64,000 nucleotides of DNA from Escherichia coli. Its GTDB lineage: Bacteria > Pseudomonadota > Gammaproteobacteria > Enterobacterales > Enterobacteriaceae. The notes under the pieces were generated by a model that worked only from the letters and a program-made list of their open reading frames with translations, made no database searches and had not been told where the DNA came from. A program made the position numbers and the translations under genes. Below are positions 1 through 60,922 of this stretch, one piece after another. Position 1 is the stretch's first letter, and each line of letters opens with the position of its first letter. The DNA lies in assembly GCF_022846255.1 (NCBI RefSeq), contig NZ_AP025682.1; one strand, written 5' to 3'.

Positions 1-134
1 GATGGTACTGGCAACGTTGCCGGGCTAAATATCTCTGTTGCAACCGGCGTTTTGCTTGGTGAATGGTGGCGTCAGAATAAAGCCTGATAAATCAGCCGGG
101 TGGCAACGCTGCCATCCGGCGTTTTCCTGCAAAT

Positions 135-824
135 TTACTCACTTTCTGCCGGTAATACTGGCATCCAGTCAATCGGTTTCTCGCCACGTTGTTCCAGCCA
201 CTGATTTGCCAGCACAAAATGGTTGCAGCCAAAGAACCCACGATGCGCAGAAAGCGGTGATGGATGCGGCGCTTTCAGTATGTGATGGCGTTGCTTATCA
301 ATAATCGCCCCTTTCTTTTGCGCATGTGAGCCCCACAACAAAAACACCACGCCTTCGCGGTGCTGGTTAATCAGGCTGATTACTTTATCGGTGAAGGTCT
401 CCCAGCCGAGGCTGGCGTGGGAATGCGCCTGACCTGCGCGTACCGTCAACACAGTATTGAGTAGCAGAACGCCCTGACGCGCCCAGCTTTCAAGATAACC
501 ATGATTAGGGCGGGTGAAACCGGGAATAGTATTTTCCAGCTCTTTATACATATTCAGCAGTGACGGCGGTGTCGCAATGCCGGGGCGAACGGAAAATGCC
601 AGACCATGCGCCTGTCCCGGTCCGTGATAAGGATCCTGGCCGAGAATCACCACTTTAACGTCACCCAACTCTGTAAAGCGGAACGCGTTAAAGACATCTT
701 TTTGTGGCGGATAGATAGTGACGCCGGACTGCCGCTCGCTGGCGACGGTCTGTAGGGTATTAAGAAAATAGGGTTGCTGCTTCTCTTCAGCCAGCACATC
801 ATGCCAGGTTAATTCGTTAGCCAT
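135..824 (-). CDS. ung: uracil-DNA glycosylase
   Basis: 229-aa ORF starting [20 protein letters not shown], recognised as E. coli Ung; conserved K-12 neighbourhood. Confidence 0.95.
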
Positions 825-954
825 CTCGCTCTCCTGCGAATCTTCAATCCGCCTAGCTTAACTGCTTCTTTCTACAGAACAAAATCATGCTCATTTTATA
901 GACAAAAAGACATGCAAAAAAATGTAAATTGGTAAAATTTCACACCTGCATAAG

Positions 955-968
955 TTGATGTAAAACAA
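955..968. promoter_or_regulatory. distal FNR-like site TTGAT-N4-AACAA upstream of grcA
   Basis: One mismatch to the FNR consensus; centre exactly 53 bp upstream of the proximal site, matching the known two-site grcA (yfiD) promoter layout. Confidence 0.5.
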
Positions 969-1007
969 TAAAATCCATTTGTGACCACATTCGATATGTG
1001 GTATTTA

Positions 1008-1021
1008 TTGATTTAAATCAA
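1008..1021. promoter_or_regulatory. proximal FNR site TTGAT-TTAA-ATCAA upstream of grcA
   Basis: Perfect FNR consensus palindrome about 115 bp upstream of the grcA ATG. Confidence 0.65.
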
Positions 1022-1128
1022 AGAATCAAGGGTGTTTGAGGAGTATATATACACTCAAGCAACAATGGTTTTACCAATTGGCCGCGACAGGCTGAACAAA
1101 TCAAATAATTTTGCCGGGGAGGCATCAC

Positions 1129-1512
1129 ATGATTACAGGTATCCAGATTACTAAAGCCGCTAATGACGATCTGCTGAACTCTTTCTGGCTGCTGGACAGC
1201 GAAAAAGGCGAAGCGCGTTGCATCGTTGCGAAAGCAGGTTTTGCAGAAGACGAAGTGGTTGCAGTAAGCAAACTGGGTGACATTGAGTACCGTGAAGTTC
1301 CAGTAGAAGTGAAACCAGAAGTTCGCGTTGAAGGTGGTCAACACCTGAACGTAAACGTTCTGCGTCGTGAAACTCTGGAGGATGCAGTTAAGCATCCGGA
1401 AAAATATCCGCAGCTGACCATCCGTGTATCCGGTTATGCAGTTCGCTTTAACTCTCTGACTCCGGAACAGCAGCGCGACGTTATCGCTCGTACCTTTACT
1501 GAAAGCCTGTAA
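1129..1512 (+). CDS. grcA: autonomous glycyl radical cofactor GrcA (YfiD)
   Basis: 127 aa from the internal ATG ([16 protein letters not shown]...[29 protein letters not shown]); GGGAGG Shine-Dalgarno 7 nt upstream; the ORF track start at 1111 is TTG. Confidence 0.95.
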
Positions 1513-1533
1513 GGCTTAAGTAGCAAGTTACTA

Positions 1534-1564
1534 AGCGGAAGAGGGCGACCTCTTCCGCTTTTTT
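1534..1564 (+). terminator. rho-independent terminator after grcA
   Basis: Stem AGCGGAAGAGG / CCTCTTCCGCT, loop GCGA, followed by T5. Confidence 0.65.
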
Positions 1565-1566
1565 CA

Positions 1567-2154
1567 TTAATAGAAAATGCGTACCGCGCAATAGACCAGC
1601 AGCAGCGCGAGCACGATATTTAACTGGCGACCATACTGGCGAAACAATCGCTGAAACAGGTGCCCCGCCAGCGCCCAGCACACATTGCCAAACGTCCCAA
1701 TCATCGCCAGCAAAACGCTGACGCCAATTATCCAGCTTAGCGCCTGCGTTTGCGGCAGGACAAACGTCGACAGTGCTGTAATGCCATACAAAATGATTTT
1801 GACGTTCACAAACTGCAAAGCAAAGCTGGCCCAAAAACTGATTGGTTTTGTCTGAAGCCCATCTTCCTTTGTTGGACTGGTAGCGATTTTCCACGCCAGC
1901 CAGACAATATATGCCGCCCCCGCCCAACTCAACAGATGCACTGCTGCCGGGTCGATAACAGCCAGTGAAAACGAAATTCCCGCGCATAGCAACATGACGA
2001 TTAAAAATCCCAGACTCATCCCTGCCAGCACGCGAGTACTCTGACGAAATCCGTGCGTTGTAGCTGAGCTAAGGGCGAGAATATTGTTCGGTCCTGGCGT
2101 CATGGCGGTAATCAGGGTGTAAGTCCAAAAAGCACTTAAAAGGGTCGGTGTCAC
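1567..2154 (-). CDS. eamB: cysteine/O-acetylserine exporter (LysE/RhtB family)
   Basis: 195-aa hydrophobic ORF at the conserved position between grcA and yfiE. Confidence 0.9.
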   Translation of the reverse strand: MTPTLLSAFWTYTLITAMTPGPNNILALSSATTHGFRQSTRVLAGMSLGFLIVMLLCAGISFSLAVIDPAAVHLLSWAGAAYIVWLAWKIATSPTKEDGLQTKPISFWASFALQFVNVKIILYGITALSTFVLPQTQALSWIIGVSVLLAMIGTFGNVCWALAGHLFQRLFRQYGRQLNIVLALLLVYCAVRIFY

Positions 2155-2256
2155 TTGTTATCTCCTCTGTTTTGGTAGACAGTACCCGACACGGAACATT
2201 TAAAAAAATGAATGTTTTTACATTCTAAATTCGATATTTTCGATAGGTTTGGGGTT

Positions 2257-3138
2257 ATGGATCTGCGCCGTTTTATTACACTTAAAACCGTGGTGGAAGA
2301 GGGTTCCTTTTTGCGAGCTTCGCAAAAATTGTGCTGTACACAATCGACGGTGACTTTTCATATTCAGCAGCTTGAGCAGGAGTTCTCGGTACAATTGTTT
2401 GAGAAAATTGGTCGACGAATGTGCCTTACCCGCGAAGGAAAAAAGTTGCTGCCGCACATCTATGAACTTACCCGAGTGATGGATACGCTTCGTGAGGCTG
2501 CGAAAAAAGAGTCGGATCCGGACGGGGAACTACGCGTTGTTTCAGGCGAAACGTTGCTCTCTTACCGAATGCCGCAGGTGTTGCAGCGTTTTCGGCAACG
2601 CGCTCCAAAAGTGCGTTTATCGTTGCAGTCGCTGAACTGTTACGTGATCCGTGATGCGCTACTGAATGATGAGGCCGATGTCGGGGTTTTTTATCGCGTA
2701 GGGAATGATAATGCTCTGAACCGGCGAGAGTTGGGTGAACAATCGCTGGTGCTGGTGGCTTCACCGCAAATTGCAGATGTCGATTTTACTGAGCCGGGAA
2801 GACATAACGCCTGTAGTTTTATTATCAATGAACCGCAATGTGTCTTCCGCCAGATATTTGAGAGCACGCTGCGCCAGCGACGGATCACGGTGGAAAACAC
2901 CATTGAGCTTATAAGTATCGAAAGCATCAAGCGTTGTGTCGCGGCAAATATCGGGGTCAGTTACCTGCCGCGCTTTACAGTGGTAAATGAACTTGCGAGT
3001 GGCGAATTAATCGAATTGCCTTTTGGCGAACAGTCGCAGACGATTACGGCAATGTGCGCTCACCATGCCGGAAAAGCGGTTAGCCCGGCGATGCACATTT
3101 TTATTCAGTGTGTTGAAGAGTGTTTTTTGCCGGGATAA
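2257..3138 (+). CDS. yfiE: LysR-family transcriptional regulator
   Basis: 293 aa from the internal ATG (MDLRRFITLKTVVEEGSF...), N-terminal helix-turn-helix; conserved synteny. Confidence 0.85.
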   Translation: MDLRRFITLKTVVEEGSFLRASQKLCCTQSTVTFHIQQLEQEFSVQLFEKIGRRMCLTREGKKLLPHIYELTRVMDTLREAAKKESDPDGELRVVSGETLLSYRMPQVLQRFRQRAPKVRLSLQSLNCYVIRDALLNDEADVGVFYRVGNDNALNRRELGEQSLVLVASPQIADVDFTEPGRHNACSFIINEPQCVFRQIFESTLRQRRITVENTIELISIESIKRCVAANIGVSYLPRFTVVNELASGELIELPFGEQSQTITAMCAHHAGKAVSPAMHIFIQCVEECFLPG

Positions 3139-3170
3139 AAATAATGCCGGGCTTAAACCCGGCATTGAGA

Positions 3171-17478: not shown

Positions 17479-17748
<270 letters not shown>

Positions 17749-17954
17749 TTACCGTTAAATCATTTTAAAAATCAGTAAGTTGTATCGAGTTTGTATGCTT
17801 TACTGTCATTAACTTACTGTATGTTGATCCAGTGTATTTAACCTTGATAAACTCAGTCCAGTAACACAAAGCCGCAACACATTGCATTTTGTCCCGTAGA
17901 AAAGACTTGTATGTGTGTGCTTGTTTTCTGCGCCTACGCAGATAAGGATTGAGA

Positions 17955-19352
17955 ATGCCGCGCACTGTAACACATAATCCGGATAGCCCCAATAATGACG
18001 ATGTTTTAGCCGCATCTGAAAAATGGGACGCCTGTAAACCCCCCTATACCAGCGCACACATGAAAATCTGTGTTGCTGCCGCCAAAATCATCCTCGCTGC
18101 TTCCGGCGTGGCTCGCCGTTCCAAATACGAAAAAGAGAACTATCTCCGTATCGATTTCAGCAAAGCCGGTAAGGTTACATTTTACGCCGAGTTTCCAAAA
18201 AAGATGGGCCTCAAAGGTAAAAAGCTCGGCGAGTGGCCGGAGCTCGCTATCCAGCTGGCGCGCGAAAAAGCGCTAGGTATGGCTGACGGTGGCCTGCGGG
18301 CAGAGTCCGTACATGCAGCGCTGGAAATGTACCGGGATGACCTCAAAGCCAAAGTCGCCCGGCAGAAGCTGAGCCCGGACAGTTTCACAACCTACGGGGT
18401 GCGTATCGACCGGATTAAAGCAACGTTCGGCGAGCGCGAGGTGTTCAGCGACGTAACATACAATCGGCTGGTGGAAGTGCTGGACGAGTGGATCGCTACT
18501 CGCTCGAACAATAACGCCCTGGAGTTGTTTGCCGAGCTCCGTCGGTTCTGGAAGTTCTGCGCACCTACTCTTTGCAACGGCCGCAATGTTGCCGCCAGTC
18601 TGCCAGATGATTATGTTTCCTCCCGCGTACAGAAACCTACCCCCACACGGCTTTTTACCGATATTGAATCAATCGCCCGACTCTGGCTCAATGTTGCTGC
18701 CTGCACCTCTGTACACCAGAAGAATGCTGTTCGCTTCATGATCATCACTGGTGTTCGTCCGATTAATGTCCATAACCTGCGCTGGGACTACGTTCACGAG
18801 GAGGCTGGTGAAATTGTTTATCCGGAAGGGGTTATCGGCATGCGAGGGGCTATGAAAACACAAAAGGCTTTCCGCCTGCCGATAACCCCTGAGATCCGGC
18901 GGATTATCGACGAGCAGAAAGCCTGGCGTGATTCAGTTCCTGAGTGCAACAGGGATTATGTATTTTTGCAGCCACGTGATCCAATGCAGCCATTTTCAAA
19001 ACGATCACTGGATAAGCTGGTGAAAACATACAGCCCGGACGGGGCTGTAAAAGGAATAAAACATGATGGGACTGTTAAAGGGAAAGACGGTGCATTTAAT
19101 ACGATGTGCCGTAAATTCCTTAAGAGCAATGTTATTGCCTTGATGAAGGAAAGAGGCTATTCCCGCTCAGACCGAAGGGAAATCAGCCTCCTTTGCCTTC
19201 ACCACTCCAGCAAGTCAGATGACCCGATGGCAGAACATTACGACTTTTCTGATGAGATTTTACAGGAAGAGATTGCGTTGAAGCGCGAAGCTTTCGAGGC
19301 TCACGAGCGGAGCATACTTGCGCAGGTGGCATTGCTACGGCGGCGAGGTTAA
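17955..19352 (+). CDS. phage integrase (divergent tyrosine-recombinase-like)
   Basis: 465 aa from the internal ATG with AAGGA Shine-Dalgarno (ORF-track start 17949 is TTG); position beside attL; candidate catalytic R/H/Y residues in the C-terminal half. Confidence 0.65.
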   Translation: MPRTVTHNPDSPNNDDVLAASEKWDACKPPYTSAHMKICVAAAKIILAASGVARRSKYEKENYLRIDFSKAGKVTFYAEFPKKMGLKGKKLGEWPELAIQLAREKALGMADGGLRAESVHAALEMYRDDLKAKVARQKLSPDSFTTYGVRIDRIKATFGEREVFSDVTYNRLVEVLDEWIATRSNNNALELFAELRRFWKFCAPTLCNGRNVAASLPDDYVSSRVQKPTPTRLFTDIESIARLWLNVAACTSVHQKNAVRFMIITGVRPINVHNLRWDYVHEEAGEIVYPEGVIGMRGAMKTQKAFRLPITPEIRRIIDEQKAWRDSVPECNRDYVFLQPRDPMQPFSKRSLDKLVKTYSPDGAVKGIKHDGTVKGKDGAFNTMCRKFLKSNVIALMKERGYSRSDRREISLLCLHHSSKSDDPMAEHYDFSDEILQEEIALKREAFEAHERSILAQVALLRRRG

Positions 19353-20989: not shown

Positions 20990-21002
20990 TTAAAAATGTT
21001 AT

Positions 21003-21920
21003 TTATAATAGTGCTGTTACTATTGCATCTTTAAAAATATTTTCTTCTTCATTTATTAAAGGTGATGACAGATGAATAATTACTTCTTTTCCTGTCAATA
21101 CTATTTGCTCGACTTGAAATCCTGCGTTGTGTAGTCTTTGGCGTAACTTTTCTAGTGCTGATTTTGATATACTAAATCCTTCACTCCTTATAGTATAACT
21201 GGCAACTCCATTTTTAATAATATCTACAGAGTTGTCAATTTCCTGCTGCGAGTAATTTTTCGGTGAGTCGAAAAATCTGGATTTTGTCGTTGCTGTTGCC
21301 CTAAGAGATATCAATAATGATTTGATATCTTTAATCTCAGATGCCAGATACTCAGTTTCTGATACTTCTTTCTGGTCTAGTTGTGCAACTTTGAAAGTGC
21401 CAAAATGTTTGAGGAATGTTGTGTATTCAGGATCAGTTACTGACTTTAAATATGTTTCTTTTATCTTGCTCGCAAGTCTTTCTTTGAATAAATTGATTGA
21501 TTGGTATCTTAAATCCGAAGGGTACTCTAAATGTTCAATTGATGAAATGTCAAAGCTATAAGGAGTGCGCTCGTCCTTAATAATTACGGTCGGTTTGTCA
21601 AATGCGAGACGCATTCCTAATTCAAACATTACATTAGCGTTTCGAGCACTTATATCGCAAACAACTATGGGGTTTTCATAAAGATTTTGAACAATTCGTT
21701 TTTGTATTACTGCAACATCATCATCTGAACTTACCAAATTTGCCTTGAATCCGGCATCATTTGATGCTTCACAAATAATGTCATGAACATTTCTCCAATG
21801 TCCAGTGGGATAACCTTCTATGTCCGCAATTGGCATAATAATGCCGCATATATGAGGTGGCATATTTTTGTTGTCTTTTACATCATCTTGGTTTATTTCT
21901 TTCGTTTGTTGCTTAGCCAT
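21003..21920 (-). CDS. hypothetical cargo protein with N-terminal TIR-like/NDT-like domain
   Basis: 305 aa; motifs ICGIIMPI, PIVVCDIS and RNANVMFELGMRLAFDKPTVII resemble the beta-strand and NV-x-FELG core of the 253-aa protein; AT-rich by eye. Confidence 0.35.
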   Translation of the reverse strand: MAKQQTKEINQDDVKDNKNMPPHICGIIMPIADIEGYPTGHWRNVHDIICEASNDAGFKANLVSSDDDVAVIQKRIVQNLYENPIVVCDISARNANVMFELGMRLAFDKPTVIIKDERTPYSFDISSIEHLEYPSDLRYQSINLFKERLASKIKETYLKSVTDPEYTTFLKHFGTFKVAQLDQKEVSETEYLASEIKDIKSLLISLRATATTKSRFFDSPKNYSQQEIDNSVDIIKNGVASYTIRSEGFSISKSALEKLRQRLHNAGFQVEQIVLTGKEVIIHLSSPLINEEENIFKDAIVTALL

Positions 21921-21935
21921 AGCTTACACAGACTC

Positions 21936-22220
21936 CTATTGTAATTTTTTGCCTAATATACATGAAAGCTCCTTACTATCCAGTACTACCACGGTAAAGC
22001 CCAGTTTTCGCAGACGTTCATGCTCGCGCAACTGATCAGGTCGTGGTGGTTTGCCTGGTGCTTTGCATTCGACAAAGACGATGCGACCGCCGGGTAGCAG
22101 AACAATGCGATCTGGTACCGAGCGGAGACCGGGAGATACGAACTTAAAGGCAACCCCGCCAGCCTTTTTTACTTCAGCGACGAGGTGCTTTTCGATTAGG
22201 TTTTCACGTTCATAGGCCAT
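21936..22220 (-). CDS. VRR-NUC domain nuclease
   Basis: 94 aa (GFKFVSPGLRSVPDRIVLLPGGRIVFVECKAPGKPPRPDQ). Confidence 0.65.
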   Translation of the reverse strand: MAYERENLIEKHLVAEVKKAGGVAFKFVSPGLRSVPDRIVLLPGGRIVFVECKAPGKPPRPDQLREHERLRKLGFTVVVLDSKELSCILGKKLQ

Positions 22221-25627: not shown

Positions 25628-27130
25628 TTAATATGATAAATAATCATACAAGCATAAAAGTCGCCTGTATTGGGTATCAATTTTATGCCCTGGTTTTGTT
25701 AAATAATCTCGTAGTTGTTTCAATGAAATAGTATCGTTTAGTACGCAATACATAATCGTGTTAGCAACTTTATACTCTTTCGTTTCTTTTAGTATTTCAT
25801 CAATAGACACAGCCTCACTCTTACATGTTTTAATTCGAGAAAGGTTACCAATGATTTTATCTAGCTGCCGTTTTCTGTATGTCTCGGTATTTTCTAGTTC
25901 AGGGCAGATAGAACTAAAAGCGTATATTGGAAAGTGTTCGCTATTAGCTATGGTTTGCTTATTCAGTAATGCGATAAGCTGAGAGTTTGCTTCGTCAACT
26001 ATTTTAAAATAGTTCTGTATCATTTCAGATTTTGTTTGATAAACATATTGTACGGTTCTTTCTGAACCAACAGCAATGACCATTTCATCATTGCGAAGTT
26101 CATCTAAATTTTCTGTAATTTTAACCTTTATCTCACCACCACTTTTGATGGTACTCCAAACTTTTTGAACCTTTCTTATGTCCATTGCGGATACTGGCAA
26201 AACTAGTCCCGAGATGGCATCATATACAGCTTTGTAATTGTTTGTTTTTATTTTGTTTATTCTTATGATAGACATGCCTTCTATATCTATGTCATGCTCC
26301 GTAATTTCAGTTGACATGCTGTCTTTTTCGTATTCAACCAAAAGAAAATTATCTTTTATCCTTTTTGCAAGTTCGGTATTTAAGTCAACGTATGAGAATA
26401 TGGTTTTTAATAAGTACTTAATGTTTTTATCGCTAATACTATACCCTATAAATATGATAGGGTTGTGTATGAATATTGAGAGTAATTGAGCGCGAATTAA
26501 CTCATATTTATTGTCGAAGTTTGCGTAGTCTTCACCTGTGATAATTATGTTGTTAGGATCACTAACACAGCCATGTATTTTGTAAACTGAACCGTATGGG
26601 TTACTTAAAAGAATGTTATTACCAATCAGTGGGTTAAATTCGAAGATGTTCTCTACGAGTTGGTCGTAGTTTGTTGTAATGATGGAGCCTATGTTTTTTC
26701 TTGTTTTTATTAAGCTGTTTATTTCCTCCATCATTGACTCTTTTATCTTTAGGTCTTTAAGTATTGAAGTTAAATAAATTTTGAATCGACTTAGTTTTTT
26801 TCCTTTTTTCATGTGCTCATAGAAAACATCATTGATGTCTTTGAACTTACCGTTACGATCTTCTGCCAGCTTTTTATTAAAAATATCTTCAAGTTTTGTA
26901 GCTAAGATATCATATCGATAGTCGTCACCTTCTAGGCTTTCAGCTTTCAAATCGTAGTAAAACTCAGCATTACCGGTTAGTTCCATTGCGACACTCAAAA
27001 GAAGACCATCCCAGCTAAATGAGTTTTCTAGATACCGTAGGCTAAATCCTGTTCCAATGAATAGAACAGGGTGGTTTTTATAGTGACTTACAAACTCTTG
27101 GATTTCCATACCGATTCTCAAAGTTGACAC
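25628..27130 (-). CDS. SIR2-like domain protein (SIR2_2 / ThsA-type N-terminus, unknown C-terminal domain)
   Basis: 500 aa; LFIGTGFS, ITTNYDQLVE, KIHGCVSDPNNIIITGEDY and PIIFIGYSISDKN align by eye with the ThsA SIR2 motifs; GTG start with AGAGG Shine-Dalgarno (alternative ATG at 27109); AT-rich. Confidence 0.7.
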   Translation of the reverse strand: MSTLRIGMEIQEFVSHYKNHPVLFIGTGFSLRYLENSFSWDGLLLSVAMELTGNAEFYYDLKAESLEGDDYRYDILATKLEDIFNKKLAEDRNGKFKDINDVFYEHMKKGKKLSRFKIYLTSILKDLKIKESMMEEINSLIKTRKNIGSIITTNYDQLVENIFEFNPLIGNNILLSNPYGSVYKIHGCVSDPNNIIITGEDYANFDNKYELIRAQLLSIFIHNPIIFIGYSISDKNIKYLLKTIFSYVDLNTELAKRIKDNFLLVEYEKDSMSTEITEHDIDIEGMSIIRINKIKTNNYKAVYDAISGLVLPVSAMDIRKVQKVWSTIKSGGEIKVKITENLDELRNDEMVIAVGSERTVQYVYQTKSEMIQNYFKIVDEANSQLIALLNKQTIANSEHFPIYAFSSICPELENTETYRKRQLDKIIGNLSRIKTCKSEAVSIDEILKETKEYKVANTIMYCVLNDTISLKQLRDYLTKPGHKIDTQYRRLLCLYDYLSY

Positions 27131-56609: not shown

Positions 56610-57211
56610 TGGATAAAGCCGTATTAAATAGCGAACTTATTGCCACGAAGGCGGGGAATATTACCGTCTATAACTATGATGGTGAAACACGGGAATATAT
56701 TTCCACTTCAAATGAATATCTTGCCGTTGGTGTCGGTATCCCGGCATATTCCTGTTTAGATGCTCCTGGCACATATAAGGCTGGTTATGCAATCTGCCGT
56801 TCAGTAGATTTAAACTCATGGGAATATATGCCAGACCATCGCGGTGAAATTATCTATAGCACCGAAACAGGAGAAGCAAAAGAAATCACAGCTCCGGGTG
56901 ATTACCCTGAAAATACAACCACTATCGTCCCGTTAACGCCATATGATAAATGGGATGGTGAGAAATGGGTGACAGATTCTGAGGCACAACACGGTGCCGC
57001 AGTAGAAGCGGCAGAAGCACAGCGCCAGTCACTGATTGATGCAGCAATGGCTTCCATCGGTCTGATTCAGCTGAAATTACAGGCCGGACGGAAGCTGATG
57101 CAGGCAGAAACAACCCGGCTTAACGCTGTGCTGGATTACATTGACGCGGTGACGGCAACAAATACCAGCACAGCGCCGGATGTCATCTGGCCTGAACTGC
57201 CGGAGGCGTAG
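56609..57211 (+). CDS. tail fibre assembly protein (U-like)
   Basis: 200 aa; C-terminal TSTAPDVIWPELPEA-type motif. Confidence 0.65.
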   Translation: MDKAVLNSELIATKAGNITVYNYDGETREYISTSNEYLAVGVGIPAYSCLDAPGTYKAGYAICRSVDLNSWEYMPDHRGEIIYSTETGEAKEITAPGDYPENTTTIVPLTPYDKWDGEKWVTDSEAQHGAAVEAAEAQRQSLIDAAMASIGLIQLKLQAGRKLMQAETTRLNAVLDYIDAVTATNTSTAPDVIWPELPEA

Positions 57212-57626
57212 GCCATTCAATATCTGGCGCACAGGAAGTATCGACCAGTTCCAGTGCGTCCAGATAATCCAGCCATAAATTATATTGCTCCAGCTCGTTA
57301 CCTTTCAGACGACCAATAGCAGCTTTGCCAGGCCACTGATGGGTATTGATGTAAGTATTGGCTTCTGAAACCAAAGATATTTTTTTCATTTCAGCCATCA
57401 ACACCTCATCCTCTTTTGAAGGCGGTGGGGAATTAATCCATATTGGCCGTCCTGAACTGTCAGCGCCAATTTCTTTCCCTTCTGGATGCAGCCCAAGAAA
57501 TTGCTCATATGTTTCTCGGGTAATTTCAATAACATCATCTGGAAGCGTTCCCGCATCCTCATATTCTGGAAACAATTCTTGTAGATAAAAACTTTTACTT
57601 CCGGGTGAAAAGAATACTGAGTTCAT
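57183..57626 (-). CDS. alternative tail fibre assembly protein (U'-like)
   Basis: 147 aa on the opposite strand; C-terminus TSCAPDIEWPTPPAVQAR paralogous to the plus-strand gene. Confidence 0.6.
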   Translation of the reverse strand: MNSVFFSPGSKSFYLQELFPEYEDAGTLPDDVIEITRETYEQFLGLHPEGKEIGADSSGRPIWINSPPPSKEDEVLMAEMKKISLVSEANTYINTHQWPGKAAIGRLKGNELEQYNLWLDYLDALELVDTSCAPDIEWPTPPAVQAR

Positions 57627-57628
57627 TA

Positions 57629-58123
57629 TTACCGTCCAATGATTAACGCTGAGACGCTGGTATCTGAAGGAAAGGCTGCATTCAGTGGTTTGTCGACTTT
57701 GAACACAATCGTATTATTCCCCCTGACAGCGGCAAAAGAACAAACCGCAGTCGCGTATGAACCTGTAATATTACTGGATACACCACCATAAGCTGTTGTT
57801 GATACCAGAGGGATAACGCCCAGCACCTTATTAGGAAATACAAAGGGCAATGTGGCTGTGGCAATATAAGACTTATTAGAGCCTGTGATGGCATAAGCAT
57901 TATCAGTCATTCCATTCATCGCCACCGGGCCGCTTATACTTACAGTAACCATCTGAATGATTAGCCCGTCAGGTTGACGAATCACAAAATTTCCATTGCC
58001 ACCAGTAACCGTCCAGAAAGACATATCAGGGATTTGGTTTTCCCCGTTGCCCACATTCCGTTTTGCCGCTTCTCCCAAACCAACGTTTATGAAAATGCAG
58101 AAATAACGAGCAAATGGCATCAT
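57629..58123 (-). CDS. alternative tail fibre variable C-terminal segment (Sv'-like)
   Basis: Minus-strand ORF whose 5' end (..INVGLGEAAK) spans the right crossover site; expressed only after inversion fuses it to the constant fibre N-terminus. Confidence 0.55.
   Translation of the reverse strand: MMPFARYFCIFINVGLGEAAKRNVGNGENQIPDMSFWTVTGGNGNFVIRQPDGLIIQMVTVSISGPVAMNGMTDNAYAITGSNKSYIATATLPFVFPNKVLGVIPLVSTTAYGGVSSNITGSYATAVCSFAAVRGNNTIVFKVDKPLNAAFPSDTSVSALIIGR
58069..58083. repeat. right crossover site of the invertible segment
   Basis: CTTCTCCCAAACCAA, reverse complement of 56128..56142; about 67 bp upstream of the invertase start. Confidence 0.6.
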
Positions 58124-58149
58124 TCCTGCTTTTGTCAGGGAGATCTACC

Positions 58150-58704
58150 ATGCTTATTGGCTATGTACGCGTATCAACAAATGACCAGAATACCGATCTA
58201 CAACGTAATGCGTTGAACTGTGCAGGATGCGAGCTGATTTTTGAAGACAAGATAAGCGGTACAAAGTCCGAAAGGCCGGGACTGAAAAAACTGCTCAGGA
58301 CATTATCGGCAGGTGACACTCTGGTTGTCTGGAAGCTGGATCGGCTGGGGCGTAGTATGCGGCATCTGGTCATTCTGGTTGAGGAGTTGCGCGAACGTGG
58401 CGTTAATTTTCGCAGCCTGACGGATGCTATTGATACCAGCACACCGATGGGGCGTTTTTTCTTTCATGTGATGGGGGCCCTGGCTGAAATGGAACGAGAA
58501 CTGATTGTTGAACGAACAAAAGCTGGACTGGAAGCTGCTCGCGCACAGGGACGAATTGGTGGACGTCGTCCCAAACTTACACCAGAACAATGGGCGCAGG
58601 CCGGGCGACTAATTGCATCAGGAGTTCCTCGCCAGAAGGTGGCGATCATTTATGATGTTGGCGTATCGACTTTGTATAAGAAGTTTCCGGTCGGAGATAA
58701 ATGA
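58150..58704 (+). CDS. serine DNA invertase (Gin/Pin/Hin family)
   Basis: 184 aa from MLIGYVRVSTNDQNTDLQRNAL...; closely resembles Mu Gin as recalled; the ORF-track start at 58114 is an upstream in-frame ATG. Confidence 0.85.
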   Translation: MLIGYVRVSTNDQNTDLQRNALNCAGCELIFEDKISGTKSERPGLKKLLRTLSAGDTLVVWKLDRLGRSMRHLVILVEELRERGVNFRSLTDAIDTSTPMGRFFFHVMGALAEMERELIVERTKAGLEAARAQGRIGGRRPKLTPEQWAQAGRLIASGVPRQKVAIIYDVGVSTLYKKFPVGDK

Positions 58705-58784
58705 AACCGTAGCACGTCGTATGCAAGAACGTGCCACGGCTGGCTGATAAGCTTGTAAAAATATTGAACAGGGAGTGGAGCATT

Positions 58785-59432
58785 CTATGAAGCTAATTTG
58801 TTTAATTTCATTTGTAGTGACTTTACTTCTTGGTCGATAATGTCGAATCCCTTATTGACAGCATCTCTTAGCTCTGCATCAATATTTTTTATCCCTTGAG
58901 CATAATCTACCATTACATTTATTTTTGCATCATGTAATCTCTTATACATGGTTTTATCTTTGTTATTGTCTGCCATGCCAATAAGGATTTTTTCATAATC
59001 CTCAATGAGTTTGTTGTTTCCTTTAAATGATTGTATTAATGAGCGTGAATATGTGTATATGTTAATTATTGAGTCTCTAGCAGAATCATTTAGTTTTGCA
59101 ATGACATTCGCATTTTGCTCATAGAATGTGAAATTATCATCCCCTACAGGGAATGTGAGAATCAACATTTGTCCCGGTTTTATATTATCAATGTGTGTTT
59201 TCATCCTTTTATTATATAAATTGATTAGGGTGAAAACTTCTCCCTTAACTCCTTTTAATACTGAAAGTTGTAATTCAAGGGATTCTCTTTCTGTCTCTAC
59301 TTTAGACAGCTTAGCTTGTTGGGTAACTCCTTTTAGGGTAAACCATCCGCCAATAAGAGTACCAACTAGAGCTGTGAGGGAGGAGGATAACCATCCAGGT
59401 ATGCTATTTAAAAGATTACTAAATTCACTCAT
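58785..59432 (-). CDS. membrane-anchored coiled-coil protein (cargo, unknown function)
   Basis: 215 aa; N-terminal membrane helix (SSLTALVGTLIGGWFTL), coiled-coil, C-terminal domain; very AT-rich. Confidence 0.45.
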   Translation of the reverse strand: MSEFSNLLNSIPGWLSSSLTALVGTLIGGWFTLKGVTQQAKLSKVETERESLELQLSVLKGVKGEVFTLINLYNKRMKTHIDNIKPGQMLILTFPVGDDNFTFYEQNANVIAKLNDSARDSIINIYTYSRSLIQSFKGNNKLIEDYEKILIGMADNNKDKTMYKRLHDAKINVMVDYAQGIKNIDAELRDAVNKGFDIIDQEVKSLQMKLNKLAS

Positions 59433-59490
59433 TATAAGTACTCGCTAATATTGAACGATATATATATCAAATTATTATAAAACTCGTCAG

Positions 59491-59769
59491 CTACTGGAGC
59501 AGGCTACCTGAACTTCGATCTATTCCTGCATCCATATAGTTGATGGTCTTCTGGAGCTCTTCGATTAGGGCAACAGCTTTTGCTCGAGAAATGCATATTA
59601 GTTGATCCGGAAATTCTTGTAAGGGCCAGTTTGGTATACAGGCCATGTTATCAGTGAAGGATGCAGACAAGTAAACTTCATTGGTAACCAGAGAATAGCT
59701 TACCTCAAAATTGGTGAGTTCCGGCAAACTGCTAACGTTTGACTCTTTTCTGCGCATAATATTATCCAT
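59491..59769 (-). CDS. small hypothetical protein (cargo, upstream partner of the membrane protein)
   Basis: 92 aa from the internal ATG (MDNIMRRKES...); the ORF track extends to 59919 through the G10/C10 tract; AT-rich. Confidence 0.4.
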   Translation of the reverse strand: MDNIMRRKESNVSSLPELTNFEVSYSLVTNEVYLSASFTDNMACIPNWPLQEFPDQLICISRAKAVALIEELQKTINYMDAGIDRSSGSLLQ

Positions 59770-59851
59770 GACTGTAATTATGTACAGGTGATGGTCTTCA
59801 ATTTCGAAGAGGGAGTCAAGGGGGAGTCTCAAATGAACCGTTATAGAAAAA

Positions 59852-59861
59852 GGGGGGGGGG
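59852..59861. repeat. G10 homopolymeric tract
   Basis: Ten consecutive G upstream of, or within an N-terminal extension of, the 59491..59769 gene. Confidence 0.5.
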
Positions 59862-59970
59862 ATCTTTGTGTTGCTGAACTTATGCAAAATTTTTTTGCAC
59901 CATAAATCCAACAACACATTCAATAACACATTGCTGTATCACTATGAAAATAAATGTGTTTTTATTTGAT

Positions 59971-59988
59971 TTCACACATATCACAATT
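59971..59988. repeat. attR core, 18-bp direct repeat TTCACACATATCACAATT
   Basis: Identical to 17692..17709. Confidence 0.7.
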
Positions 59989-60018
59989 GATGCATTTTTT
60001 AGTGATTAACAGCGCCAT
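59971..60018 (-). pseudogene. yfhL: displaced original 5' fragment of yfhL (16 codons)
   Basis: Minus strand reads ATG GCG CTG TTA ATC ACT AAA AAA TGC ATC AAT TGT GAT ATG TGT GAA ([16 protein letters not shown]); 19 of 30 bp identical to the phage-borne yfhL 5' end outside the core. Confidence 0.6.
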
Positions 60019-60073
60019 AAGGAAACTCTCAAAACAACACAAACCGGGCGGGCATTATACGCGCATTCTTTAC

Positions 60074-60922
60074 TCAGACCAGTTTTTTCACCAGCGCTTC
60101 GCTATGACGAATACGTTCTGGTGCCAGTTCCAGATCCTGCTGAATCAGCGCAATGAACAGCAAATCCGTTAACATTCCCTGCGCGTGACAAGCAGAGATT
60201 GAAGCACTGTTTGTCGCTTGTTCTTCGGCAATGGTATACAGGCAATGAGAAGCACGCTGTTGCAGGGCATTGGGAGTAAAGCCGGTAATAGCCAGCACTT
60301 TTCCGCCCACTCGCAGCATCTCATCTGCCGCCAGGTTTAACTCGCGTCGTACACCGGTGTAGGAAATGGCTAATAACAGATCGTCAGGGGACGACGCCTG
60401 TACTGTAGCGAGTAGCGCATGCATATCGCGCACTGCGGCAGCATTGAAGCCAATCTTCATCAGCTTCCAGGCAAAGTTTTGCGCCACCAGACCCGAAGCG
60501 CCAATACCGGTCAGAATTATCCGCCGCGCAGAGCGCAACATTGCCACGCATTCATGCAGTTTCTCTTCACTATTAACGTTTAACGTTGCGTACATAGCGG
60601 CAGTATTTTCTTTAATCAGTTTTTCGCCGACCAGCCGTAACGGATCATCACCGCGGATTTGGTTATGAATGGGCACGGAGGGAGATTCCGGCTGGCTTGC
60701 CAGCGCTTCACTCAACGCCAACTTTAGTGCCGGAAAACCTTTATAGCCGAGTTTTTGCGCGAACTTCACGACGCTGGATTGACTGACTCCGGCTTCGTTG
60801 GCCAGTTGCTGAGAGCTTAAATGGCGCGCCGTATCAGGTTGTAGCAGCAGATAATCCGCCAGTTTTTTATCACTCTGGGCAAGCCCCTGGTAACGCTGAC
60901 GGATACGAAGTAAGCCGTTCAT
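60074..60922 (-). CDS. yfhH: RpiR-family transcriptional regulator (HTH plus SIS domain)
   Basis: 282 aa from the internal ATG (MNGLLRIRQRYQGLAQSDKKLADYLL...). Confidence 0.8.
   Translation of the reverse strand: MNGLLRIRQRYQGLAQSDKKLADYLLLQPDTARHLSSQQLANEAGVSQSSVVKFAQKLGYKGFPALKLALSEALASQPESPSVPIHNQIRGDDPLRLVGEKLIKENTAAMYATLNVNSEEKLHECVAMLRSARRIILTGIGASGLVAQNFAWKLMKIGFNAAAVRDMHALLATVQASSPDDLLLAISYTGVRRELNLAADEMLRVGGKVLAITGFTPNALQQRASHCLYTIAEEQATNSASISACHAQGMLTDLLFIALIQQDLELAPERIRHSEALVKKLV

Follow-up and report, generated by a model that had tools for sequence, protein, structure and literature searches.

attR of an Escherichia coli prophage in the 5′ part of yfhL carries the displaced start of the gene and its probable native promoter

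We found that, in a 64,000-nucleotide stretch of Escherichia coli DNA (the window), positions 59971–59988 are the 18-bp attR core left by a tyrosine-integrase prophage, whose recombination falls within codons 11–16 of the ferredoxin gene yfhL. It is an ordinary attR at a known integration site, and its less common feature is that the 5′ end rather than the 3′ end of the target gene is exchanged. The parts of yfhL left behind at this junction are the first 16 codons and, very probably, the intact native promoter, as judged from conservation among species. Transcription from this promoter would run into the prophage in the sense direction relative to its terminal cargo genes, and we regard such transcription as a by-product of recombination (probability about 0.6). 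The features that define the two junctions are:

17479–17739, minus strand: hybrid yfhL of 86 residues, composed of phage-supplied codons 1–10, the core and the host body of the gene
17692–17709: attL core, exact 18-bp repeat and partner of the attR core
17949–19352, plus strand: tyrosine integrase (PF00589, E 4e-7; phrog_1 integrase, E 1e-26; PGAP 'tyrosine-type recombinase/integrase')
59962–60018, minus strand: chimeric 18-codon mini-ORF, made of 16 host codons, two phage codons (IK) and TAA at 59964–59962 (from translation)
59971–59988: attR core, the 18-bp crossover identity, which is yfhL codons 11–16 on the minus strand (exact repeat, K-12 attB alignment)
59989–60018, minus strand: displaced host yfhL codons 1–10 (MALLITKKCI), with the ATG at 60018–60016 (unoccupied loci match)
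60019–60073, minus strand: yfhH-yfhL spacer of 55 bp with the probable native yfhL promoter
60074–60922, minus strand: yfhH, encoding a MurR/RpiR regulator, directly upstream of and co-oriented with yfhL (RefSeq annotation of identical loci)

The core sequence, TTCACACATATCACAATT, is present in two exact copies in the 64-kb window (17692–17709 and 59971–59988, 0 mismatches) and nowhere else in it; in shuffled sequence, about 0.05 matches to this 18-mer are expected by chance even when three mismatches are allowed. Alignment of the attL site with the attR site limits exact identity to the 18-bp core, to the right of which the two sites are alike but not identical (11 of 30 positions differ). 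In a three-way alignment, K-12 attB equals the left side of attL, one core and the right side of attR, without a gap. With 1 kb across the right junction as the query, 5425 of the 5426 complete E. coli genomes had a match to its host side. Homology began at query position 572, corresponding to window position 59971 and thus to the first base of the core, in 29 of 29 non-lysogens picked evenly down the ranking of matches to this query. The exact repeat, the fit to K-12 attB and the breakpoint all uphold the first-pass annotation, which had named 59971–59988 as the partner of the attL core. The 42.3 kb between the cores contain genes for replication, lysis, terminase, head, tail and baseplate as well as a DNA invertase, and the integrase gene adjoins attL, divergent from the hybrid yfhL.

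Surrogate yfhL codons 1–10, ATGTCTTTACTAATTACTAAACGCTGTATT, come from the phage at attL and lie flush against the core. The predicted hybrid protein is 95% identical to K-12 YfhL and retains all Cys ligands, and PGAP calls it an intact YfhL in 159 lysogens. Judged by its reading frame, yfhL is reconstituted and not disrupted by this integration. In the 209 bp from the ATG of the hybrid gene to the start of int, we saw no convincing promoter for this gene, and the promoter scan gave no match on that strand. No match to the integrase region was found in the phage collection, and the unintegrated attachment site was taken from IMG/VR, where one metagenomic viral contig contains an intact attP. 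Its order is unbroken and runs from the invertase, the 215-aa gene and the small gene through the P′ arm, the core and the surrogate yfhL start to the P arm and the integrase. This attP also encodes an 18-codon mini-ORF, downstream of the phage's surrogate yfhL start. The upstream leader of the surrogate resembles the native yfhL upstream region of Morganellaceae (Proteus, Moellerella, and Providencia), with which it shares GATA(C/T)AA(C/G)TTACTGA; in Proteus penneri, yfhL comes after tadA and an integrase is absent nearby. This resemblance suggests that a host yfhL 5′ region, possibly one captured from such a host, gave rise to the surrogate. The closest records in the phage collection were ON470588 ('Escherichia phage vB_EcoM-611R5'), deposited as a 'complete phage genome', and the related ON470579, ON470582, and ON470593. 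They appear to be excerpts of prophages and were rejected as attP references: the integrase is lacking, host yfhH, pgpC, and tadA are included, and ON470588 ends in these host genes.

At attR, the minus strand from 60018 to 59971 reads ATGGCGCTGTTAATCACTAAAAAATGCATCAATTGTGATATGTGTGAA and encodes YfhL residues 1–16. The proposal that 59989–60018 is the original yfhL start proved right, in that these 30 bp are yfhL codons 1–10 and differ from K-12 and unoccupied loci at a single synonymous base. More broadly, 59989–60073 is nearly identical to unoccupied loci (E. coli genomes, K-12, and KV7). The remnant also recurs in other lysogens of this site. We read nine right junctions, namely the window and eight other loci including that of strain 89-3156, and the stub was kept in all of them, ending in either IK* or II*, across five right-end types and two phage backbones.

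We next consider the spacer upstream of the stub, which had been presumed to hold the yfhL promoter. The yfhH stop lies at 60074–60076, leaving 60019–60073 as a spacer whose length of 55 bp agrees with that first given. Within it is a perfect −10 element, TATAAT (60059–60054), followed by the GC-rich discriminator GCCCGCCC, from which we place the yfhL transcription start near 60047. A −35 hexamer was not recognisable at 16–18 bp from the TATAAT; the best candidate by eye is TGGTCT, which matches 3 of 6 positions at a 16-bp spacing, and an A6 tract at about −37 to −42 might compensate for the poor −35. A consensus promoter scan reported neither this promoter nor the one proposed below for the cargo, in keeping with the weak hexamers in both and the poor host −35, and phylogenetic footprinting was used in its place. 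Among the yfhL loci of one genome per species, 33 Enterobacterales species have yfhH upstream, and in 32 of these a perfect TATAAT and GC-rich discriminator lie 41–49 nt before the yfhL ATG (among them Escherichia, Citrobacter, Enterobacter, Kluyvera, Kosakonia, Serratia, Yersinia, Erwinia, and Mixta). The stretch that separates the TATAAT from the yfhH stop varies among the 33 species in both sequence and length. The spacer is identical at 55 of 55 positions in the divergent E. coli KV7, in which the flanking coding DNA is 89% identical. The conserved element in 32 of 33 species thus backs the presumption that this spacer contains the native promoter of yfhL, which, stranded at attR, is probably still firing. 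No intrinsic terminator is predicted in the spacer, and yfhH is a possible second source of read-through into the prophage.

On the phage side of attR, the features that such transcription would meet are:

59862–59970, unstranded: P′ arm with (C/T)AACACA motifs at 59867–74, 59907–18, 59919–30, and 59953–60
59852–59861, unstranded: G10 homopolymer (C10 on the minus strand), where the conserved P′ arm gives way to variable cargo
59772–59819, minus strand: promoter-like module of cargo gene 1, with TTGACT (59819–59814), 17 nt, GACCAT (59796–59791) and a LexA-type box (59787–59772)
59491–59757, minus strand: cargo gene 1 of 88 aa, co-oriented with yfhL (whole-length match to phrog_17793, E 9e-45)
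58785–59432, minus strand: cargo gene 2 of 215 aa, co-oriented with yfhL (PGAP CDS)

Both cargo genes lie on the minus strand, as do yfhH and yfhL, and leftward transcription from the host promoter would thus be sense to them; the first-pass annotation had it antisense to the AT-rich cargo, and in this respect the direction of the proposed interaction is corrected. The region of the two genes has a GC content of 36%. Cargo gene 1 was found in 120 genomes and is annotated as a 267-nt CDS in ON470588; the phrog_17793 profile begins at its second ATG, and the first ATG is CTG in a variant. For cargo gene 2, there are 216 homologues across Enterobacterales, each of them a 'hypothetical' protein by annotation. 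In its AF2 model (pLDDT 84), a low-confidence N-terminus, hydrophobic by eye, leads into a long helical bundle, and the protein probably consists of an N-terminal membrane helix and this bundle. Significant PDB fold matches were absent, as were matches in Pfam, PHROG, and PADLOC. For the cargo as a whole, searches against Pfam, PADLOC, Rfam, and PDB folds returned nothing, and the sole match was phrog_17793, a family with no assigned function.

Directly upstream of cargo gene 1, at 59787–59772, is the LexA-type box CTGTACATAATTACAG. It is one of two CTGT-N8-ACAG sites in the window, where 0.67 are expected, agrees with the LexA consensus at 14 of 20 positions (by eye), and as a putative box is kept in variants. 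The module in front of it is weak by consensus, with GACCAT as its −10. The TTGACT module recurs in the DinI-type right end of strain B771, where it precedes two CTGT-N8-ACAG boxes and a DinI-like gene. The operator-like sequence suggests SOS control of the cargo at this end of the prophage.

The P′ arm is conserved in 153 genomes irrespective of the cargo. At least seven copies of (C/T)AACACA, which are candidate arm-type integrase sites, are spread over both arms of attP. Inverted copies form a 23-bp hairpin (59918–59868) in the minus-strand transcript, with a predicted energy of −24.4 kcal/mol and a z-score of −5.1. We rejected this hairpin as a terminator, for it is AU-rich and has no adjacent U tract, the closest U run being 16 nt downstream. 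Its changes among variants follow no clear compensatory pattern, and both points make it more likely a DNA-level palindrome bound by protein. The homopolymer next to the P′ arm varies among lysogens (C10T5, C9T6, C7T3, C7T4, C4, or absent), and BLAST breakpoints between the P′ arm and the cargo fall at 59855–59864. The tract could be prone to slippage or could mark a recombination seam.

We examined right-end diversity in complete E. coli genomes, as a P′ arm scan of viral contigs gave four loci, too few for this purpose, and viral loci retrieved through the integrase end at attL. The right junction is spanned in 122 genomes and the attL junction in 159, and 153 carry the P′ arm. The difference between 159 genomes with attL and 153 with the P′ arm indicates that a few lysogens have a divergent, deleted or rearranged right end. 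Carriers of the junctions make up about 3% of complete E. coli genomes (153–159 of 5426) and represent at least two unrelated phage backbones. The remnant and the P′ arm are constant among the right-end types, and the cargo switches at the G10 homopolymer. The types are:

Type A (the window and ECONIH2), minus strand: the 215-aa gene and a small gene nearest attR
Type B (611R5), minus strand: a 281-aa gene and a small gene nearest attR
Type C (DEC5E, STEFF_1, and 85.0412), minus strand: three small genes nearest attR, one of them DUF2335
Type D (89-3156, lambdoid, with gpJ): co-oriented gene absent; two minus-strand terminator-like hairpins (by eye)
Type E (B771 and F1022), minus strand: a DinI-like gene nearest attR

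The same int/att module and attR remnant are found both on lambdoid prophages (with gpJ, a tail fibre and a YadA-like protein) and on the window's baseplate-type phage, which indicates that the integration module has been exchanged between unrelated backbones. Beyond E. coli, Shimwellia, Morganella psychrotolerans, and an Arsenophonus endosymbiont have related integrases (94% and about 64% identical) beside yfhL.

To ask whether host-promoter transcription would reach the cargo, we looked on the minus strand, from 60018 to 59757, for a GC-rich hairpin directly followed by a U tract; no intrinsic terminator was predicted there, so that RNA might read through into the cargo. Of the earlier statement that the promoter drives only a 16-codon fragment reading into phage DNA, the 16 host codons do run into phage DNA, and the word 'only' is incomplete, as no intrinsic terminator is predicted before the cargo. 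Past the stop of the mini-ORF, the RNA would be untranslated for about 200 nt before the cargo, and at 59870–59793 it would contain a C-rich, G-poor stretch (C/G up to 3.2) with a composition like that of a Rho loading site.

In our reading, the phage attP brings its own yfhL start, in the form of ten surrogate codons and an upstream leader, and integration creates the intact hybrid yfhL at attL. The host promoter, the ribosome site and the first 16 codons are then left at attR, joined to two phage codons and a stop. From there, the stranded promoter would yield the 18-codon chimeric ORF and a leftward transcript that is sense to both cargo genes. Most of this RNA would probably be removed past the mini-ORF stop by Rho-type polarity, a step suggested by the roughly 200 untranslated nt, the strong hairpin and the C-rich, G-poor stretch, with Rho dependence inferred from base composition alone. 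Cargo gene 1 would be expressed from its own promoter-like module with the LexA-type operator. Our preference for a by-product of recombination comes first from the constancy of the remnant and the P′ arm while the cargo varies. It is also drawn from right ends of type D, which have terminators and no co-oriented gene, and of type E, in which the DinI-like gene lies behind two LexA boxes. A further reason is the LexA-type box directly upstream of cargo gene 1, together with the hairpin and the C-rich stretch. Counted against it are the lack of a predicted intrinsic terminator before the cargo, the weak promoter of the cargo, the poor host −35 and the co-orientation of the cargo in four of the five right-end types.

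That co-orientation also fits a different view, in which the host yfhL promoter, together with any read-through from yfhH, is captured by the prophage and mainly drives the cargo in the lysogen. We consider this on balance unlikely. The lack of a predicted intrinsic terminator between the host promoter and the cargo would suit it, as would the poor −10 of the cargo's own promoter, and the deep conservation of the host promoter makes it probably active. In attP, moreover, the mini-ORF and the cargo lie downstream of the surrogate yfhL start. In the free phage, the surrogate yfhL leader would then drive the cargo, which would always have a yfhL-type promoter and 18-codon leader ORF upstream of it, making the change on integration a reciprocal promoter swap; this extension is as tentative as the view it belongs to. 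The attenuating features argue against it, that is, the untranslated stretch of about 200 nt, the strong hairpin and the rut-like C-rich tract, and the LexA-type operator and conserved TTGACT module suggest that the cargo promoters are autonomous and regulated. One right-end type (D) has terminators and lacks a co-oriented gene, and types D and E together argue that capture is not a general requirement of this integration site.

In its fullest form, this would be a reciprocal exchange of two yfhL-type promoter/leader modules, with the host promoter passing to the phage cargo and the phage leader to the ferredoxin gene, which we consider unlikely. If true, a single crossover would rewire both a host redox protein and the prophage's own cargo, and the cargo would be expressed in step with host physiology in lysogens; the GC-rich discriminator of the host promoter suggests stringent control.

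A further possibility, which appears rather improbable, is that the spacer contains no independent promoter, that yfhL is expressed only through read-through from yfhH, and that attR merely strands the tail of the yfhH transcript. The two genes are co-oriented and 55 bp apart with no predicted terminator, the consensus scan was blank in the spacer, and our literature search found no mapped yfhL transcription start. Against this, 32 of 33 species keep the TATAAT at its distance from the ATG yet differ in the bases around it and in the length of the spacer, a pattern that is hard to explain without a function. In addition, Elsen et al. (PMC2984482) cite promoter activity for the 5′ region of yfhL, in a passage that draws on the Zaslaver 2006 reporter library (its reference 23).

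The antisense version, in which RNA from the orphaned promoter would run antisense through the AT-rich cargo, is very improbable: it would hold only if the plus-strand ORF at 59128–59448 (106 aa), which overlaps the cargo, were the real gene, and the minus-strand ORFs are real, one with its phrog_17793 match (E 9e-45) and the other a PGAP CDS with 216 homologues, on the strand that yfhL and yfhH share.

For phage 21 and e14 in icd, as for integrases that use the 3′ ends of tRNA genes, attP duplicates the end of the target gene (Campbell 1992, Hill et al. 1989). These systems resemble the yfhL prophage in having a tyrosine integrase that acts on a core inside a gene, a surrogate gene end that keeps the gene intact and a displaced host remnant at the other junction. 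In them, however, it is the 3′ end that is replaced and the promoter stays with the gene, whereas in the yfhL prophage the 5′ end is replaced and the promoter is displaced. The closest studied analogue is HK022, which integrates between torS and torT, after which the host gene is transcribed from a start inside the prophage (Carey et al. 2019, PMC6814406). As in the yfhL prophage, the native promoter and regulator site are separated from the host gene by integration. The attB of HK022, however, lies between genes, coding sequence is not exchanged and what becomes of the displaced promoter is not at issue; for the yfhL prophage, transcription from phage DNA is our reading of the hybrid locus. 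Integration in the 5′ part of a gene, as seen here, is also described for Staphylococcus phage phi13 in hlb and SpyCI in mutL (cited in PMC6814406; PMC4129442); there, the gene is inactivated or switched off, but in the yfhL prophage the frame is restored. The yfhL locus itself has been published as a prophage site in E. coli, where the relevant passage describes the gene as 'disrupted' (Bobay et al. 2013, PMC3603311), and as an insertion site of Stx2b prophages (PMC10675304 and PMC12029490). The locus is the same as that of the window prophage. These accounts, as far as the passages go, treat yfhL as 'disrupted' or just as an insertion site and dissect neither junction, whereas the window prophage rebuilds yfhL at attL and leaves a 16-codon stub at attR.

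A gene that figures in the literature as disrupted by prophages is rebuilt here, and the only stranded parts are its promoter and the stub. With the stranded promoter, a simple natural test is at hand of whether prophage accessory genes are fed by host promoters that 5′-end integration has displaced. If read-through proves negligible, the junction would be merely a clean and well-documented att site.

Some further features of the prophage were noted. At the end of the invertase gene (58700–58738), Rfam gave a match of 29.5 bits (E 0.0012) to the 3′ end of CssrB, below the gathering score of 76; it drops out when that threshold is applied and is probably due to chance. Positions 57183–58704 contain a Pin/Hin-type DNA invertase (PF00239, E 1e-51) beside oppositely oriented genes for a tail-fibre C-terminus and its assembly, and probably form an invertible host-range segment. 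In the early region of the prophage, AT-rich islands at 21000–22000 and 26000–27000 have a GC fraction of 0.32–0.35. Related records annotate a TIR-like domain protein in the AT-rich early part of the genome, and these islands may be additional cargo or defence genes.
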